Part shown: positions 5,053 to 64,000 of the stretch, piece after piece
Position numbering within the stretch: position 1 is the first letter of the stretch
Layout of the letters: each line of letters begins with the position of its first letter
From: Narcine bancroftii
Lineage: Eukaryota
Assembly (NCBI RefSeq): GCF_036971445.1
Contig: NC_091473.1
Span: 215,574,001-215,638,000 of the forward strand
Direction: 5' to 3'
DNA: 64,000 bases
Notes under the pieces: generated by a model
Seen by the model: only the letters and a program-made list of their open reading frames with translations
The model's database searches: none
Told to the model about the DNA's origin: nothing
Made by a program: the position numbers and the translations under genes

Positions 5053-6630
5053 TTTTTTTCTCTTTGGCTTGGCTTCGCGGACGAAGATTTATGGAGGGGG
5101 TAAAAAGTCCACGTCAGCTGCAGGCTCGTTTGTGGCTGACAAGTCCGATGCGGGACAGGCAGACACGGTTGCAGCGGTTGCAGGGGAAAATTGGTTGGTT
5201 GGGGTTGGGTGTTGGGTTTTTCCTCCTTTGCCTTTTGTCAGTGAGGTGGGCTCTGCGGTCTTCTTCAAAGGAGGTTGCTGCCCGCCAAACTGTGAGGCGC
5301 CAAGATGCACGGTTTGAGGCGTTATCAGCCCACTGGCGGTGGTCAATGTGGCAGGCACCAAGAGATTTCTTTAGGCAGTCCTTGTACCTTTTCTTTGGTG
5401 CACCTCTGTCACGGTGGCCAGTGGAGAGCTCGCCATATAACACGATCTTGGGATGGCGATGGTCCTCCATTCTGGAGACATGACCCATCCAGCGCAGCTG
5501 GATCTTCAGCAGCGTGGACTCGATGCTGTCGACCTCTGCCATCTCGAGTACTTCGACGTTAGGGATGAAAGCGCTCCAATGGATGTTGAGGATGGAGCGG
5601 AGACAACGCTGGTGGAAGTGTTCTAAGAGCCGTAGGTGGTGCCGGTAGAGGACCCATGATTCGGAGCCGAACAGGAGTGTGGGTATGACAACGGCTCTGT
5701 ATACGCTTATCTTTGTGAGGTTTTTCAGTTGGTTGTTTTTCCAGACTCTTTTGTGTAGTCTTCCAAAGGCGCTATTTGCCTTGGCGAGTCTGTTGTCTCT
5801 CTCATTGTCGATCCTTGCATCTGATGAAATGGTGCAGCCGAGATAGGTAAACTGGTTGACCGTTTTGAGTTTTGTGTGCCCGATGGAGATGTCAGCCTTG
5901 TCTAGCATGGTTCTGATGTTCCAGCATGCTAGCTTGAGTTTGTGAGCATCTTTTGAGGGGGAGGACGTGGAGGGGGAGGACGTGGAGGGGGAGGACGTGG
6001 AGGGGGAGGACGTGGAGGGGGAGGACGTGGACTTGTCCTCGGGCCTGCGCAAAGGAGCTTTTAGGTGGAGTGCAGTGCGCGCAGTACTGGCCCCACCCTT
6101 TACACCCATGGTTCGTGTGCCGTGGCCGAGCAAGCTGGGACGTGGCAGCGAGGTCCTTGGGTCGTAGGTTTTATATCGGAGTGGCCTTCTCCTATGCAGG
6201 TTTCTTACCCGGGCTGGAGGGGCCTGCCTCCCCTCCTAGGTCGGTCCATACTGCCCGGACCGGGGCCGAGGCCGCCGCAGCTCACGCTGTGCCTGGACTG
6301 GGGCCGCCACCTCCCACTCTCTGCCCGGATCGGGGCCTCCGCCTGCCCCACTCGACCGAGGCCGGGGCCGCTGTTTCCCCCTTGCTCCTGCCCGGATCGG
6401 GCAGGAGCGGCCCCGGCCTCGGTCCGGGCGAAGGGTAGACGGCGGCGGCCCCGATACGGGCAGGAGCAAGGGGGAGACGGCGGCCCCGGCCTCGGTCCAG
6501 TGAGGCAGGTGGAGGCCCCGATACGGGCAGAGAGTTGGAGGCGGCGGCCCCAGTCCGGGCACAGGGAGAGCAGCAGTGGCCCCGGCCCCGGCGAAGGGTA
6601 GGCGGCGGCGGCGGCCCCGATCCGGGCAGG
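5053..6630 (-). mobile_element. RTE-clade LINE, internally deleted copy with both ends and TSD
   Basis: Near-identical to the RTE at 46907-50462. 12-bp TSD attagccactat at 5041-5052 and 6631-6642. ORF 5114..6133 joins ...MLDKAD directly to ISIGHTK..., so the endonuclease and RT are missing. Confidence 0.93.
5955..6031. repeat. 15-bp minisatellite (gagggggaggacgtg)x5 inside RTE, encoding (STSSP)n
   Basis: Five units here versus three in the sister copy at ~47158-47203. Confidence 0.9.
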
Positions 6631-33459: not shown

Positions 33460-33465
33460 TTTATT
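33460..33465 (-). terminator. Poly(A) signal for membrane-form Ig mRNA
   Basis: AATAAA on the minus strand, ~125 nt after the TM2 stop. Confidence 0.6.
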
Positions 33466-33590: not shown

Positions 33591-33602
33591 TCATTGCTGT
33601 AC
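33591..33602 (-). CDS. IgW: IgW heavy chain TM2 exon (cytoplasmic tail V-Q-Q-stop)
   Basis: Strong acceptor tctcacttctctgtccacattccag|GTA CAG CAA TGA. It is phase 0, matching the TM1 donor after AAG, and analogous to the V-K-stop TM2 of IgM. Confidence 0.7.
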   Translation of the reverse strand, partial: VQQ

Positions 33603-34208: not shown

Positions 34209-34351
34209 CTTGACCACAGTGACAAAGGTGCTGTAGAGGAAACTGATAATGAACAGAATGGCGAAGGCAGCAACTGTAAGCACGTTGTCATCTCCATCCA
34301 ACTCTCCTGGTTCTTCCTTTCCTTCCTCTCCTATCAATTCAGTGCAGGCTT
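34209..34351 (-). CDS. IgW: IgW heavy chain TM1 exon (acidic spacer + transmembrane helix)
   Basis: Acceptor ctttcttgatcactgcag|AA (phase 1). Encodes EACTELIGEEGKEEPGELDGDDNVLTVAAFAILFIISFLYSTFVTVVK, which has the antigen-receptor CART pattern (F..LF..S..YST.VT..K). Donor AAG|gtaacc. Confidence 0.92.
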
Positions 34352-38990: not shown

Positions 38991-39445
38991 TATTTCCCTT
39001 CTTGGCCACTCTCTACAGAAATAATTAGGGGAAAAAGTGTGGAGCGTATCACCAGTCCAGAAATAACATCTTATCTCCAAATGGACCATAACATTGCTTG
39101 TGTTTGTCCTTTTGCAAAGAACACAAAACTCTGTGAATTGGATCAGGACTGGTCTCTCAGCTGCAGTCACTTGAGAACAAATAGTGAATTAGGGCTTCTG
39201 CAGAATGTTACATTCACAACGCTGTTCAAATTGTGAACCATGTGATCAGATGCTGTTCTCCATACAAGGAAGAGTGACATTCTGGAGATACCCTCTCTTT
39301 CCTCAATGGAATTAATTGGTGGTGCAATCATGACCTGGATTTCCTGGACTCTAATACTAAAGGACAGCATGCCTGTGGATGGATGTACATCACGCCAATG
39401 CAAACCGACTCCAACTGAGTTTCATTGAAGCGTTGAAACTTCGTG

Positions 39446-39650
39446 ATGGACCTCTTCTCCAGTGTTGACAAAAACCTGAACAAATACAAGTACTCAGCCT
39501 GACTCCACCCATCTGCAGTGAGTCAGCCAAATAAACCTTTGACCCTGTTCCTCTTCGGCCCAAGTCTTCACGTCCCAGGTTACCCTGAACTGCTCAAAAT
39601 CAATGAGGGCCAGCTCACACAAAGTGGCCATCATCCTCTTCCTTCAGTTG
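39446..39650 (-). pseudogene. Decayed duplicate of IgW C5 exon (pseudo-C5')
   Basis: The minus strand reads ATLCELALIDFEQFRVTWDV versus C5 TILCEVVHGDLEGFRVTWQV. Shared DNA blocks are ccaggttaccctgaa, agtactcag and atggacctcttctccRgtgttgRcaaa. It is about 47 bp shorter between anchors, has an in-frame stop, and has no clear splice sites. Confidence 0.8.
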
Positions 39651-40422
39651 TGCTGACAGACAGACTTGCCCAAAGTTCCTGAGAAACTAGTGTCCAAACC
39701 TTGATCTTGCCACCATTATGTCATCTTTCTTTCATCGGGTGAGACTGTTGCTTATCGGACCAGCATTTATTGTTCTGCTCCAGTGACTGACTTGCCAGGC
39801 CTATCAGAGACACTGATGAATTTGGTGAGTGACTGAAGGCGAAAGAGTGCAAAAGGCAGGTGAACTTTACAAAAGGTCATCAGTGAACCTGTTAATCTTC
39901 TGTTCCTTTCCCAGTTTCACCCTCACTTCGACTGCCCACAGCAACTCATATCCTGCTATTGCTTTCTAGTTTAAAATCCTGCACTGTCCCTTCAAGTTGT
40001 GCGTCGAAGCCATTCTCCAGAGGCTGTTGAGCATAACCAAGCGTTGCCCTCCTCTGTGTTGGGCTATTGAGGTGTTCGACAAGATGTGGTGGAGGCAGAT
40101 ACAATTGGGTCTTTTAAGAGACTTTTGGAAAGGTACATGGAGCTTAGAAAAAAGACCTATGGGTAAGGCTGGTCATTTCTCAGGTAGGGACATTATTGGC
40201 ACAATTTAGTGGGCCGAAGGGCCTGTGTTTTAATGTAGGTTTTGTATGTTTTTCTGTGAAATTGTATCAATGAATATATTTGCTTCTGTTCTATGCATTC
40301 AGGTTATCAGCTCCCTCACATAAGCACAACAATGCCTCATCGATCTTTCAGTGAACTAACTTGGCCCCAGTTTGTGGCATAGAGAAAGGTGTTTAAGATT
40401 AGGGTGAATCCCAGAACCGTAC

Positions 40423-40740
40423 CTTGCATGTTTTTCACCTCCCGGCTGATACTGGTGTTGGAGGGGGGATGAGACACTATACAGCTGAAGACTGAGCCTT
40501 TCTTCCACTCATCTGTCCTCACTGTCAGGAAGTGGCTGGCACTGAAAGTGCCCACCTGCTCCAAAGCAGTCCGTGTAGTGGGGGTGTTGGAGGAGATCAG
40601 GGAGCTGTCTTTCTCCCAGGTGACATTTATGAGGTCCGGGTAGAATCCAGAGACCACACACTCGAGGGTGGCCGTGATCCTACTCTTGGTATCGTCATGT
40701 GTTGGCGGCAGCAGACGGACCTCAGGCCCTTTGATCTCGA
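40423..40740 (-). CDS. IgW: IgW heavy chain duplicated constant exon C4' (intact, 318 bp)
   Basis: Acceptor ctgttccag|TC, donor CAA G|gtacgg, phase 1/1. Encodes VEIKGPEVRLLPP...LECVVSGFYP...W...EWKKGSVFSCIVSHPPS, a C1-set Ig domain with Cys/Trp/Cys, ~69% identical to C4 by hand count. Confidence 0.9.
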
Positions 40741-40828
40741 CTGGAACAGACGAGCAAAGAAAGGAGACGTCAACATTTTTACTCAAGGTCACAGATGTTG
40801 TCCATCTAATCACTGATCTTTTGCCCAC

Positions 40829-41131
40829 CTTTGGTACTTTGTGTCTGTGCTGAGACTGGCGAGGACGAAGAAGATCCTTGGGTGGAACAAGTGTACACTG
40901 CCCCACTGTACCACTCCTCCACACTGGTCTGAAATTGGCTGATCACTGTGCTTTGTGTCCCTTCCTCTCTCGGTTGTTGGGTCACATTTCCTTTCATTTT
41001 CTCCCTTCCGCTCACCTGCCAGTATATTTGGACCTGGCTCAGATCAGCACCCACAACCAGGCACACCAGAGTAGCGCTCTTGTTGATCCAAATCTCTTCA
41101 GTGGATGGATTTTGTAAAAAGATGGATAATT
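40829..41131 (-). CDS. IgW: IgW heavy chain duplicated constant exon C3' (intact, 303 bp)
   Basis: Acceptor tttctcacctgcag|AA, donor AAA G|gtgggc. Encodes ELSIFLQNPSTEEIWINKSATLVCLV...YW...EEWYSGAVYTC...STK, ~59% identical to C3. The 88-bp intron to C4' mirrors the 85-bp C3-C4 intron. Confidence 0.9.
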
Positions 41132-50462: not shown

Positions 50463-51018
50463 ATCTCTAAATTTAAATTTGAAATTTAAATCAGCTACTT
50501 GATGGTTATTCATTGCCCCATCACAATAAGACTCATACTGGAGACTAAAGGCACTTTTAGGTTGCCAAAATCCCCCTATGTAAAGCCACATATTATGCCC
50601 ATATGTGTCTGTCAGGAGGCCACTTGAAAGCACAGGAGGTGGATGTGAGGCAAACTTTGTAACCCTCCTCCAGGAGGGATAGTCGCCGGAGTACTGAGGA
50701 CCCCCGGCACCTGAATGCAGCCGCCTGAAAGCGAATGCTGAGGGGATGACAATATGCTGGTGAGCGCTTGACAGCTCCCCTCGCTGCTGCCCTGCCCGCT
50801 GGCACAGGACGTCAGGGCAGGGGCAGTGGGCATGGGCTGTCAGTGCTGGGGCAGCCAGCACGGTCAGTCAGGGTTGAGGTGACCGGCGCGGTCAGTCAGG
50901 GTTGAGATGACCAACGCGGGCTGTAGGGGTTGTAGGGCTGTAGTGGTTGGGGAGGACGGCGCGGGCTTTAGTGGTTGGATTGGCCGGTGCGGGCTGTAGT
51001 GGTTGGGCCTGCCAGTAT

Positions 51019-51648
51019 GGGCTGTCCCTATACTGATCCCACTTATGTGGGACAGATTAATTTGTTGCTTTCCAATGCAGGCACCGAACACCAAATGTTT
51101 GTTGATAATCTGCCCACAGCCACGCCAAACCTTGAGTGCTCTCCCCACAGCCCTTAATCAGTCCCAACACTGTGGGGCGGCCGGTGTGGGCAGAGCAGTG
51201 GGATCAGTGTGGGGACCAACATGTGGCTATGGGGAGAGAGCAGAGCAGTGGGATCAGTCTGGGGACCGACATGGGGCTAGTTTAATTGGACGGTAATGTT
51301 TGGTGCACACATTGTGGCCAAATGGGCTATTTCTGTGCTGTCCTGTTCTTTGTTTTAGATATTCATTATATTTAGTGTTTGCATTTCTCTTTGATAAACT
51401 AGCTGGGTTTTTATTTGCCACCGTGATGTCTTTTGCTAACTGGTTCATGTGTAAATTCTTCTGTACCATATATTTTTCCTAATGCCTCTGCTAGTTCAAA
51501 CTCTCTGCCGGTCTGATTCCTCTCAGAGCACTGAAGGTTTGACTTGGCTGTCGGCAGATTCTCAACAAACATTTGGTGCTCGGTGTCTGCATTGGAAAGC
51601 AACAAGTTAATCTGTCCCTCATAAGTGGGATCAGTATGGCAACAGCCC
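51019..51648. repeat. ~125-bp inverted repeat pair (51019-51142 / 51525-51648) with ~380-bp spacer
   Basis: atactgatcccacttatgWgggacagattaaYttgttgctttccaatgcagRcaccgaRcaccaaatgtttgttga... is present in opposite orientations. Confidence 0.88.
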
Positions 51649-51736
51649 ACGCCGGCCACCCCAGCGCTGACAGTCTGCGCTGCCCACCCCAAACCCTGTA
51701 GACCACCCCACCTCTGACAGCCTGCCGCCCCAACCC

Positions 51737-54700
51737 TGACAGCCCGAAGGGACAGGAGCCAGAGTGTGCTCCGAGGCACCTCCCTTGCAGCTTTCCCTTT
51801 CAGATGGCCAGCGCTGCACTTTCAATCGCAATAGATATTCACCAAGAGAAATGGTTACTTAAACAAACCTTGCTTTTAATTATTTTGAAACATGAAAATA
51901 GAAGAAAACTTTAACTTATCGCTATTGACTTACTTAACCTAACTTAACCCCCTTCTAATTCTAAGCGCACGTGTATGTAATGTGTGTGTAAGTTCTCTGG
52001 TTCTCAGTCCAATCTCACTTCTCATTCCTCCAAGTTCACTGATTGCAGGCAATTCTTATACTGTGCACAGAATTTAACATTTATGAAGTTCACCAGGCTT
52101 TGGTGCTTGAAAGGTGAGGTTCTTGTCGGTTTTCAGAGAGACATTTGTTGTACGATGGACACCAGCCACCTCAGTGTCTCGCTGATGAAACTTATCCCCT
52201 GTGACAGTACAGGATACAATCACCAATGTATATTTTTCTATATTTTTACAGAAAGTGATTGGCTGAGAGCCGGAGCCACACCTACTGGCAGGTCATAAAG
52301 GGCTGCTCTGGACTGGTCGACCTCAATGTACTACGCTCCAGTCTTTTGTCAATAAAATCGTAGCGCGTCAAATGACTCGAAGACTTGTTGACTCAAATCA
52401 AGGCTCATGGACCTTCTACCTCCCCAAACCCAGAAGGTACTCAAATGCTGCCTGGGTTTTTTTTTCTTATTATGCTCAATGAGTCCCACAGTACCCTGAC
52501 AAGGCACGGCCTAATTAAGTCCACCTCCTTCCCCTTGTCAGCGGAAGCCAGACTGTCTTTTGACCGCATCAAGTCGGATATCACCGTGGTCACTCTGTTC
52601 GCAGTAGACATATCCTTCCAGGTGGAGACCAATGCGTCTGACTTTGCATTGGCAGCCACCTTAAACTAGGCCGATAAGCCTGTCACCTTCTTTTCTAGGA
52701 CCCTGCAGGCCCAGAAAGCCAACACTAATCTGTTGAGCAAGAGGCCCAGGCCAGCAGAGAGGTCGTATGTTGTTGGAGATACTACCTCGCTGGCAGGCGC
52801 TTTACACTCCTGACCGACCAACGCGCAGTCTCATTTATATTTAGTGGCAGCAGCGGAGTAAGATCAAACATGACAAGATTCCCAGATGGAGAATCAAACT
52901 CTCTATCTTCAACTACGACATTCAGCACAGGCCTGGCAAACTCAATGACCCGCTGACGTCCTTTCCCATGGGACATGTGCCAGTGTACAACTGGACAGGC
53001 TGAATAGATCCACGAGGAGCTCTGTCTCCCAGAGGTCACCAGGTCTGCCCACTTTGTAAAGGCCCACAACCTGCCTTATATGGTCGAGGAGATCTGCTCC
53101 ATGACCCGAGCCTGCCCAGTATGCACTGAGTGCAAGCCCAATTTCTTCTGGCCCGAGAAGACCCAGGTCATTCAAACCACCCAGATCTTCGAACATCTCA
53201 GAGTGGACTTCAAAGGGCCCCTACTGTCGATGAACCGTAACACCTACATTCTCACAGTGATACATGAGTTCTCCTGCTTCCTGTTCGCTATTCCCTGCCC
53301 AGACGTGATTGCCTCTTCAGTCATAAATGCATTCCACAGCATCTTCGCCATTTTCGGGTACTCCAGTTACATCCATAGTGACTGGGGGGTCCGCGTTTAT
53401 GAGTGCGGAGCTGAGGCAGTACCTCCTGGAGCATCGAGCAGGACCACGAGCTGCAACCCACATAGTAATGGACAGGTCGAATGGGAGAATGCCACCGTCT
53501 GGAAAGCAGTCACGCTTTCCCTCTGGTCCAAAGGCAGAATGTCCTCCCAAATGCCCTACACTCCATCAGGTCCCTGTTATGCACTACCACCAACGCTACT
53601 CCGCACGAATGTATATTCTCGTTCCCGCGGAAGTCGGAACCGGGAACAACTGCACCAGCATGGCTGACGGTCCCTGAACCTGTCCTGCTGAGAACTCATG
53701 TCCGCTACTCGAAAACAACCCTCTAGTCCACCAGGTAACGCTGTAACATGTGAACCCGCACTATGCCTATATCGAGTACCCGGAAGGGCGGGAGGACACG
53801 GTTTGGATAAGGGACCTGACCCAAGCCAGGTCTAACATTGTCACGTTCCAACCCCAACCTCCATTCAATCCTCCCCTAGGTTACATGCAGGGACAGTGGG
53901 ACCAGCAGCACCTCGCAGATGACAACGGCAGCAGATTGGACCAGTCCTCAGCCAACGACGTCTGTGTACTAGGCGAAACTGCACCCACACCCGGGGTCTC
54001 CAGCAATGATATTCTGCCAGCTACCCCGATCCCGGTGATCATGTGAACAATCAGGCCTCCCGACTGTTACAGCCCGTGAACACTGCATGATATACTTTCC
54101 ACTTTTTCTTTTATTCACTCCGAGGTCAGTTCCTCAAGAAGGGGTGAATATGATAATACAGGATACTATCACCAATGTATATATTTACATATAGTAATAG
54201 TGATTGGCTGAGAGCCGGAGCCACGTCTACTGGCAGGTCATAAAGGGCTGCTCCTAACCAGACCCAGGTCAGTCTGGACTGGTCGACCTCAATGTACTAC
54301 GCTCCAGTCTTTTGTTAATAAAAGCCTTGTTAATAAAGTCAACAAGTCTTTGAGTCATTCGATGGGCTACACCCCCTTCAGGTTTCTCCAGATGCCCAGC
54401 CACCTCACTGTCTCTCTGACAAAACTTGCCCCCTTCAGGGTTCTCCAAATGATAACGTCTTTCTTTCAGGTCACCACAGAGTGCCTTTTCCTTTCTCTTC
54501 TTGCAAGTGGAACATTAGAGAGCCAGTCCTCTCCTCTTGTATGAACCACAAGGGCTTTGACCAGGCTAAATCAAGCACTTACAACCCATCTTTCACATGG
54601 GGTTTTCCACAAGCTTGCAAGCTTGTCCTGTTCCAGTCCCAGCTGCTGTTGCTGGGTGTAATACTGGAGAAGTAATCTTTGTCTCTCTCTCTTTCTGAGA

Positions 54701-57870: not shown

Positions 57871-57876
57871 TTTATT
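57871..57876 (-). terminator. Poly(A) signal for long secretory Ig mRNA
   Basis: First AATAAA found on the minus strand after the C6 stop, ~250 nt downstream. Confidence 0.7.
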
Positions 57877-61665: not shown

Positions 61666-64000
61666 CTGTGGATCAGAAAGAGGAGATGTCAGAATTGTAG
61701 TGGAAACTTTTCTCTTTGTGATGGAAAGTCAAAGCAGATCCAAGTGCATTGTGGCAGTGAACTGGAAACAAGGTAACAGAAACTCGCAAGGGTGGAAAGG
61801 TGTGCTGCAAATGTTGGCTGGGAAAATAAACTCAGTATAAAGGACCTGCCAAATGGGTTTAATCGCCTTCCCCACAACTGTGACCACAAGGTTCAGAGCA
61901 GGGACTCGATGGGAGGTGAGAGGCTGAACAACATTTTGATGCTGCAAAGCCAGTCACAGGTTTGTGGGAAGCCAGAAGAGAGGGAAGTGGGCATATTTCT
62001 CATCAGAGACAATTCAATATCTTCTTCACATGGAGCCCCTGTGGAATGAGTTACCTCCACTGAGCATTGTGAATCAATGAGAATCCTTTTCTCTGGACTG
62101 AGGCTGGGATTCCCTCAGTTTGTATTCAGTTAATAAATGCATCCTGGAATAAAACACTCTCTTTGGTGGTGGGGATTATAAAGTATTTGTGCTGTTATAA
62201 AACCCATCTGGTCCACTGTTGTTCATCACCAGAAGAAATCTGTCATCTATACCTGGTCTGGTTGCATGTGACTCCAGACCTGCAGTTACATGGCCAAGCC
62301 CTGGTCCAGCAAAACCCTCAGTTCAAGAGCGATCAATGAGGGACATGAAATTGTGAATGAATATGATTCCTCTGTGACGGAGCTTTGGGGGCACCTGACA
62401 TCTGGGTTTGAATCAGTTTTCTGTGAGTGTGCTCCAGTGAAGTGGTGCGGTGTTTTAATATTTGAAAATAACTATTTGAAAGAAAGATGTGGACAACTTG
62501 CTCTCCAGCAACAACAGAGCAAACCATAAATCTGGAGAATAACAGAAATCTCCCTCATGCTGCACTTTGGGAAATTTTTGGAACAGATGTAGTTTCCCCG
62601 TTTCATTTTAGAATCGTTTGTTTCCTGTTTTCTGCAAAGCCACTGGTCTCCTCAAGCACCATCGTCACATCAGTTAAACTGCAGTTCACCATTTACACAA
62701 TCAGTCACTTTGGTCCACGAGGGCTGTGTTTGCTTTCAAACACTTTTCAAGGAGGGTGATTATGTTTGTGTCAGGGTTGAAACCTTCACGACATTCAGCG
62801 TAAATTCCTCTATGGTATTTAGAGCAGATATAATGAACTCTGTGCCTGTCTGGCAGGACACATTTCATTTGATGACATATGATGTTATCTCTTGCTCAAC
62901 CCATCTTTCTTTTAACAAGTGTTGAGCAATTTAAAAACATATGACAGGTACCTGGTGTTAGTCCAGATAAGATTTCTCGCAGTGTGTGGTCTGAAGTTTG
63001 TAAAGTGAGGTGTGTGGTGTCAGGGTTATTTCTTTCAGAATATTGGTTTAATCAGTACAGTGATGTTGTTGAACGTTTGTTTGTTGTTCAGTGCCATCCC
63101 ATATCAATGACAAAATCCAATGCTCAGCCATCTCTGGTGAGAGGCAGTTCCCCCTCATAAGTCCTCACAGTGTCAAGATAGCTTTCCTTTTTGCAAAGTG
63201 CTGATATTATTCTATTAACCTTTGGGTGATTACACCCACACACTCCCCTCAGTGGCATTCCTTGTGATCACTGAGTTTCTCTCTTGGACTGAGTTCAGTG
63301 TCCAGGAAGTGAGTGAACAAAATGCTTCCAATGTTTGCTGTCCATCCCTTTCACACCAAGCGCGTGAGTTTGGTCAGGTCACTGGTGGGGTCCTGTGGTT
63401 TGTCTCACTGATTTGTCACAGGCCCCTTTTCTTACAGGTTGTCACATTCTGTAACTGAGCCAAGGTGACATTTCACCCCTGTATATCTTCAGCACCTCCT
63501 CCCCAAGCCACTGGCTGAGATGTAGTTTCTGGTTCTTGCTGACCTGGAAAGAAGGTGGTGAAGGGAAGTGGGGCTGGGATCTGAATCACACTGAACCAGC
63601 AATGTCCACAAATGAATGAGTGTACATGTGAGGTGTGGAGTGGGGATGGGGCAGCTTGAATTGATGCCTTGTTCTCTGCTGCACTTTGATCTCAGTGGAT
63701 ATGGTGGGATAGATTTGAATCCAGAAAATGGATTGTAATAAAATTCACTGACGAATTCCACATGCAGCCAATCACTTTATTTGACACTTTCCTTGTGAAC
63801 AATGATACGGTCGGGTGGTACCATCAGAGAATGTCACATTGACATTAGTCTGCTGGAAGAATATCGGCACACACGTCGAACAGCTGGGACAGTTTTTATC
63901 TGAAAATGGAAGATGCATAGATTTAACCATTAGATATTCTCTCCTCTACTGGCTGCACTGAGAAAGGAAGTAGCTCCACACAGTCCCGACCTCTATTCTC

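Follow-up and report, generated by a model that had tools for sequence, protein, structure and literature searches.

The stretch of DNA analyzed here, 64,000 nucleotides of the Narcine bancroftii genome (contig NC_091473.1, positions 215,574,001 to 215,638,000; hereafter the window), covers the 3' portion of a batoid IgW heavy-chain cluster, which lies on the minus strand. Exons with open frames continue the cluster upstream, beyond the window end (in extended coordinates V at ~72.3k, J at ~71.1k, C1 at ~66.1k and C2 at ~64.8k), so that V, J and C exons stand together in the order of an IgW minicluster. Signals resembling heptamer-23-nonamer elements can be read by eye behind V and before J (7971-7932 and 7210-7168 of the DNA beyond the window end, extension L021); both depart from the consensus, and regular expressions for recombination signals had no match at V or J, where the signals are degenerate. 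The six C domains and the C6 tailpiece are homologous to IgW, as a nurse shark IgNARC/IgW record matches C5 at 68% and C6 at 69% and has an equal domain order. IgNAR would have five C domains and no IgW-type C1, whereas six C exons and a short tail are found here. A search of the PDB matched only generic Ig C domains and UrIg2, and a comparison of domains within the cluster indicates that C2 resembles C4 and C3 resembles C5.

The secreted part of the cluster comes first on the minus strand. A short Cys-rich secretory exon (63772..63899), assigned from its sequence and resembling in kind the tails of two retrieved proteins, follows C2. Next stand C3 (61366..61665), common to the secreted and presumably also the membrane forms, and C4 (60963..61280), whose donor is the branch point of the gene: it would lead to C5 in the secreted form, and it leads to C3' in the membrane form, the 3' end of C4 adjoining the start of C3' in contigs of 4/4 runs. 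C5 (59607..59927) is intact and belongs to the secreted form, the letters of its junction to C6 being present in runs X3 and X5. C6 (58127..58512) includes the secretory tailpiece and stop and is followed by AATAAA at 57876; it has no GT donor at the border of domain and tail, which holds for 5/5 clusters examined. The interval from C6 to C3' is repeat-rich and measures 17.0 kb, compared to 5.6-12.5 kb in other clusters. It holds mobile-element DNA, including an inverted copy of 836 nt that is 98% identical, a 125-nt inverted repeat and an open frame labeled by eye as integrase-like; the stretches concerned are window 5057-6278 versus 50463-49628 and 47269-46911, as well as 51018-51649 and 53008-53664.

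Behind this interval, still on the minus strand, lies a second and shorter set of constant exons. A stretch of intron that matches the one preceding C3 (41352..41566; nhmmer E 6.6e-9) belongs to the copied block and precedes C3' (40829..41131), an intact exon under purifying selection, which is separated from C4' (40423..40740) by an 88-nt GT-AG intron (40741..40828) that is removed by splicing, the joint being present in 4/4 runs. Both exons are open and flanked by AG/GT sites, and contigs show the intact C4' spliced to TM1. A relic of the C4-C5 intron (39711..39949; nhmmer E 4.6e-7) and a pseudo-C5' of 274 nt (39432..39705), recognized by its alignment to C5, its lesions and its intron-like rate, follow C4'. 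The TM1 exon (34209..34351) encodes a spacer with a Cys and the transmembrane helix; its joint to TM2 is intact in 3/4 runs, while the remaining run shows it in separate contig pieces. The coding part of TM2 (33591..33602) reads VQQ-stop, with AATAAA at 33465.

The unannotated C5 relic that the earlier note had proposed behind C4' is real. The local alignment of its region to the C5 region scores 147.5, compared to 28.9 +/- 3.9 (maximum 43.5) for 200 shuffles, a C5 profile search recovers it at E 9e-23, and its minus-strand translation contains ATLCELALIDFEQFRVTWDV. The resemblance is specific, with a score of 138.5 against C5 and of 21.5-32.5, within the shuffle range, against C3, C4, C6, C3' and C4'. 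The deletion of ~47 bp read from the letters corresponds to a net loss of exactly 47 nt (274 nt versus 321 nt), distributed in the alignment as 27+1+1+3+9+6 nt, and the suspected stop codon is a TGA at projected codons 20 and 71. The location needs a small correction: the relic does lie past C4', although it begins ~0.72 kb rather than ~0.8 kb beyond it and extends to ~39432 rather than 39446. Its pyrimidine-rich acceptor is eroded and a GT donor is absent. Among the contig ends displayed there is no splice into the relic; unbroken single contigs run across it in X1 and X2, which is not counted as evidence, since contigs drop rare variants. The last 34 nt (window 39472-39439) are identical to C5 at 30/34 positions, well above the 62-66% elsewhere, and may be a small conversion patch; at this place the relics on chromosome C1 carry A/T-rich DNA.

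The evidence on splicing comes from contigs of four putative RNA runs of one study, the RNA nature of all eight runs having been guessed. The junctions C4>C3', C3'>C4' and C4'>TM1 are found in 4/4 of these runs with exon ends matched exactly and in frame, each in separate short contigs that span single junctions and not a whole transcript. These contigs identify C4 as the exon spliced into C3', a donor on which the earlier note was silent, and bear out its suggestion that C4' is the last usable exon before TM1. A run from another organism and another study contains a spliced C3'-C4' contig that is ~93% alike, along with a TM1-TM2 contig. Because four cassettes in the genome are 100% identical, expression is not assignable to the window copy. 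Pieced together from the separate junctions, the membrane chain is likely V-C1-C2-C3-C4-C3'-C4'-TM with a KVQQ tail, in which a dedicated C3'-C4' pair likely takes the place of C5-C6 of the secreted antibody. The junctions observed thus imply six C domains in the membrane form; shorter membrane forms, made by splicing C2 or C4 to TM1, may exist alongside it.

Automated gene models are compatible with this arrangement. Four NCBI models contain C3'-C4' after C4 or C6 (XP_069798624.1; XP_072126131.1 of Mobula birostris; XP_078251664.1 of Rhinoraja longicauda; XP_051882932.1 of Pristis pectinata), and three of them then have TM1. Their names read 'uncharacterized' or 'mu heavy chain-like', and the C5 relic is marked in none. 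XP_069798624.1, labeled Narcine bancroftii, is 100% identical to C3, C4, C3' and C4' of the window and joins C4' (40423) to TM2 (33602); TM1 is skipped, which yields an off-frame, soluble-looking end, and this junction is not among the contig ends displayed.

The wider protein comparison set, made up of 28 sequences matched by C4', 17 additional cluster members and 2 more that a C3' search contributed, places the cassette in a phylogenetic frame; the domain labels used in it are those of C3-C6, C3', C4' and TM1. Orthologous cassettes stand before TM in gene models of one skate, a sawfish and two mantas. Specifically, skate and sawfish models read C5, C6, C3', C4' and TM in order, and manta models attach either C5-C6 or C3'-C4'-TM to the same upstream domains. 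In the non-self models that place the cassette ahead of TM, C4' is never followed by a C5. In bamboo shark models, TM is joined to the C4 that otherwise precedes C5, with repeats upstream of C5. A tree of 29 chosen C3-C4 modules unites the modules that precede TM in skate, electric ray, sawfish and manta in one clade (99/97) and most pre-C5 modules in another (90/83), with sharks outside the batoids (100/99). A tree of C3 alone agrees on the pre-TM clade (99/96), a tree of C4 alone does not resolve it, and a 67-row C4 tree weakly joins the ray's own C4 and C4' (86/80). Since the orthologous cassette is present in skate, sawfish and both mantas, its sequence relationships make an origin on the batoid stem likely.

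The same gene models also provide the main ground for a more modest interpretation, according to which C3' and C4' are functional yet optional, the six-domain chain being one of several membrane isoforms with 2, 4 or 6 domains that arose by ordinary expansion of a C3-C4 repeat, with no special role at the membrane. C3-C4 modules recur 2 to 7 times in the models of shark, sawfish and manta, one manta model goes from C4 directly to TM1 without the cassette, and C3'-type modules also occur upstream of C5 in secreted-type models of sawfish and one skate, which as automated models may be chimeric. Moreover, the available parts of the reviews describe shark IgW (nurse shark and dogfish) as having 6-8 C exons per cluster, secreted forms with 2, 4, 6 or 8 C domains and membrane forms with 2 or 4 (PMC5192425, PMC4279169, PMC6795676). 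Against this, the cassette stands behind the C6 stop and polyA signal, TM1 is the only exit from C4' among the contig ends displayed, and the modules preceding TM in four batoid groups make up one clade, separate from most pre-C5 modules. The optional-isoform interpretation is compatible with a dedicated membrane pair in all respects except exclusivity and share, and it is tentatively kept as the less probable of the two. As an observation on the models themselves, four IgW models, two from sawfish, one from manta and one from bamboo shark, line up 4-7 C3-C4 modules in tandem, and several of these models are named 'titin-like'.

How the block arose can be read in part from its remains. The earlier claim that C3, C4 and C5 were copied together is substantiated by the introns: the piece preceding C3' and the one that separates C4' from the relic both match their original counterparts (E 7e-9 and 5e-7), and because the C4-C5 intron (39949-39711) is both homologous and collinear, the three exons were copied as a block. 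Two clusters on chromosome C1 retain a relic of the short secretory exon at a distance of 2.9 kb upstream of C3' (E 5e-9), with a weak match in a third (E 0.014), so that the copied block extended at least from the short tail through C3 and C4 to C5; among the six clusters searched, this relic was not found in the window or in two other C11 clusters. Given its place behind C6, the copy can have come from a simple tandem duplication only if C6 was duplicated too and lost later; a search of six clusters behind pseudo-C5' returned no relic of C6 (best E 0.024, on C3' itself), the C5-C6 intron (0.1) or the C6 3' UTR (none). The inferred sequence of events would thus be a tandem duplication of [short tail-C3-C4-C5-C6] on the batoid stem, followed by decay or deletion of the second short tail, of C5' and of C6', the last of which left no surviving relic.

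The assumption that the relic has the same age as C3' and C4' is consistent with the data, although it is neither tight nor proved, as the dS figures differ. Between C5 and the relic dS is 0.81-1.02 (intervals 0.45-2.07), compared to 0.39-0.53 between C3+C4 and C3'+C4'. The gap can be reconciled by the finding that between clusters C5 has about twice the dS of C3/C4 (0.36 versus 0.17-0.19), and conversion may have contributed to it. Frameshifting indels, splice-site loss and the stop at projected codon 71 are present in 5/5 relics examined (of 10 found), and because the small deletions and this stop are common to all five, C5' must have been dead before these clusters diverged. A later death would nevertheless be conceivable if C5' had long served in a longer membrane chain, comparable to the C3-C4-C5 repeats before TM of coelacanth IgW1 as laid out in the available text of PMC5192425, in which case the relic would not be a neutral clock running since the duplication. 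The dN/dS between C5 and relic of 0.45-0.55 and the remaining identity of 62-66% would fit such a history. Yet a constrained C5 branch (0.27) combined with a neutral one (~0.82) would by itself predict ~0.55, the lesions are common to all five relics, and no C5 follows C4' in any non-self model whose cassette precedes TM, which together make prolonged service of C5' unlikely.

The contrast between dead and preserved exons becomes quantitative when paralogous clusters are compared with each other, which is a better neutral control than original versus copy; the dN/dS between original and copy (0.43-0.67) was dropped as the main test as it mixes both lineages. The window was compared with two distant clusters on chromosome C1, and the two comparisons have the window lineage in common. 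Relic distances were computed on 39705-39485, as the 3' end of the relic is non-homologous in the C1 clusters and had inflated the raw value to 0.33-0.35. The relic diverges by 21-22%, the flanking introns by 20% and C3'+C4' by 7-9%. Specifically, relic and flanking introns differ at 47/220 versus 223/1112 and 47/217 versus 227/1136 positions (Fisher P 0.65 and 0.58), so the relic behaves like an intron, as expected of the internal neutral control for which the earlier note had taken it, while C3'+C4' differ at 45/621 and 57/618 positions (P 6e-8 and 7e-6 versus the relic). Indels number 0 and 1 in C3'+C4' (the one being 3 nt long and in frame), compared to 4 and 4 in the relic.

The differences within C3'+C4' are also biased toward synonymous sites. 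The dN/dS is 0.40 and 0.39 (bootstrap P 0.004 and 0.002), equivalent to the 0.39 of the secreted exons C3-C6, compared to ~0.82 in a neutral simulation with the substitution spectrum of introns and relic (P of the observed synonymous counts 0.014 and 0.008); in 85-91% of neutral simulations of C3'/C4' a stop codon arises. Among six relic-relic pairs, dN/dS is 0.76, 1.52, 0.83 and 1.31, with 0.39 and 0.41 in two pairs whose intervals are wide and overlapping. Across the genome 9/10 cassettes are open with AG/GT sites, the tenth being part of a cluster whose C4 and C6 contain stops. Purifying selection on C3' and C4' and the neutrality of the relic are thereby upheld by the tests that the note had set, the exons standing apart from relic and introns in substitutions and from the relic in indels. 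The 88-nt intron between C3' and C4' (40828-40741) is as conserved between clusters as the exons (6/88 and 5/88 differences): all C11 clusters compared have it without a single difference, and in C1 clusters its identity is 93-94%, whereas the matching 85-nt intron on the secretory side is 80% identical (p 0.20), which suggests either conversion or a constraint, for instance on splicing. That conversion between clusters or with C3/C4 homogenized the whole C3'/C4' tract with no selection of its own is largely refuted and very improbable, for although it would account for this intron, for the mosaic cluster at C11:207.52M (22% different upstream, 2-4% in exons) and for the greater likeness of C4 and C4' in their middle part, conversion shortens distances and yields no synonymous excess, C3' is just 74% identical to C3 and groups with the pre-TM C3 of other batoids, and C3' and C4' are spliced in frame.

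The genome search recovered at least 10 C3'/C4' cassettes, at least 10 relics and at least 10 TM1 exons, and some of the clusters merit a description of their own. Four IgW clusters on C11 (207.66M, 207.80M, 207.98M and 215.61M) are 100% identical over every searched stretch, with one of them 7.6 Mb from the rest, which reflects either very recent duplication or a duplication in the assembly. The cluster at C11:207.51-207.53M is a candidate whole-cluster pseudogene, with a stop and a lost donor in C4, a lost C5 acceptor, a TAG in C6, a 2-nt deletion in C3' and TM1 ~24 kb away; compared with the window, its DNA upstream of C3' is 22% different and its exons 2-4%, a mosaic that suggests exchange between clusters. 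At C1:240.65-240.68M, C3'-C4'-relic-TM1 may be an orphan cassette: the 21 kb upstream contain none of C1-C6, and the protein search lists no intact C5 at this place.

The available data are best explained by a model in which the block copied behind C6 kept C3' and C4' and lost C5', and in which splicing from C4 through C3' and C4' to TM1 produces a receptor that is likely V-C1-C2-C3-C4-C3'-C4'-TM alongside a long secreted antibody ending in C5-C6-tailpiece; the probability of this model is put at roughly 0.82. Observed are the relic, the homology of the block, the selection contrast, the three separate junctions and the cassette in batoid models. The choice of form would fall at the C4 donor, with splicing to C5 and polyadenylation after C6 (AATAAA at 57876) on one side and splicing to C3' on the other. 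In IgM, TM is reached from the last domain. Since C6 has no GT at the border of domain and tail, TM is unreachable from C6 in this manner. The membrane IgW forms listed in the reviews or seen in this analysis all have a C2/C4-type domain as their last. In IgNAR, according to the available parts of PMC4622739, C1 and C3 drive dimerization, and C2-C5 are homologous to the last four domains of IgW; a duplication behind the likeness of C2 to C4 and of C3 to C5 is noted in the accessible text of PMC12227049. By this homology, a C4-type domain probably pairs across two chains and would close them above the membrane, where C5' as the last domain would serve no use. With such a chain-pairing domain at the end of membrane IgW and no donor toward TM in C6, C5' would have been dispensable.

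Several known systems resemble this arrangement in part. In the accessible descriptions, IgW of nurse shark and dogfish likewise has a V-D-J-C minicluster, a short Cys-rich tail after C2 and a C6 tailpiece, skips C5-C6 in the membrane form, attaches TM to a C2/C4-type domain and uses C3-C4 as a repeat unit. In the ray, by contrast, the additional C3-C4 pair is found beyond the C6 tailpiece on the way to TM, which predicts a membrane chain of six domains; the retrieved shark proteins have their repeats ahead of C5, and their TM is attached to the very C4 that otherwise leads to C5. The coelacanth IgW1 locus, as described in the available parts of PMC5192425, also places the secreted-form exons first, then duplicated C3-C4-C5 units and then the TM exons; it has four tandem units in a translocon-like locus, in contrast to the single unit with a dead C5' in the ray. 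The two layouts are probably convergent, since the batoid cassette nests inside the batoids with sharks outside, in a tree from which the coelacanth is absent. IgNAR, whose membrane forms are given 3 or 5 C domains in the available portions of PMC4279169 and PMC4622739, has IgW-homologous last four domains, and its short membrane form ends on the dimerizing C3, the counterpart of IgW C4; according to the same portions, it reuses secreted-form exons for the membrane and has no dedicated copy, unlike ray IgW. No description of a batoid membrane cassette was found in the literature searched, where key primary papers lay outside the reach of the search and may already show the layout. Membrane IgW with a dedicated C3'-C4' pair is likely a new variant of IgW organization, whose isoforms already exist, unnamed, in automated models.

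These findings have implications beyond a single cluster. As a rule, the constant domains of an antibody gene are common to its receptor and secreted products, and only the ends of the two differ. Here, whole domains are apparently swapped, by means of exons kept since before skates, sawfishes, mantas and electric rays split. The further proposal that this is an undescribed innovation of stem batoids, in which each IgW cluster of skates and rays holds a membrane-dedicated C3'-C4' that is mutually exclusive with the secreted C5-C6, which lets the receptor stalk evolve separately from the antibody Fc within one gene, with pseudo-C5' as the scar of that subfunctionalization, stands at about even odds. 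The locus offers a case of exon subfunctionalization with a built-in neutral control and corrects mis-named gene models. Finally, the function of IgW is called unknown or poorly understood in the accessible text of reviews, and C3'/C4' would constitute an epitope present solely on IgW-bearing B cells, by which the makers of IgW could be told from cells that bind it.
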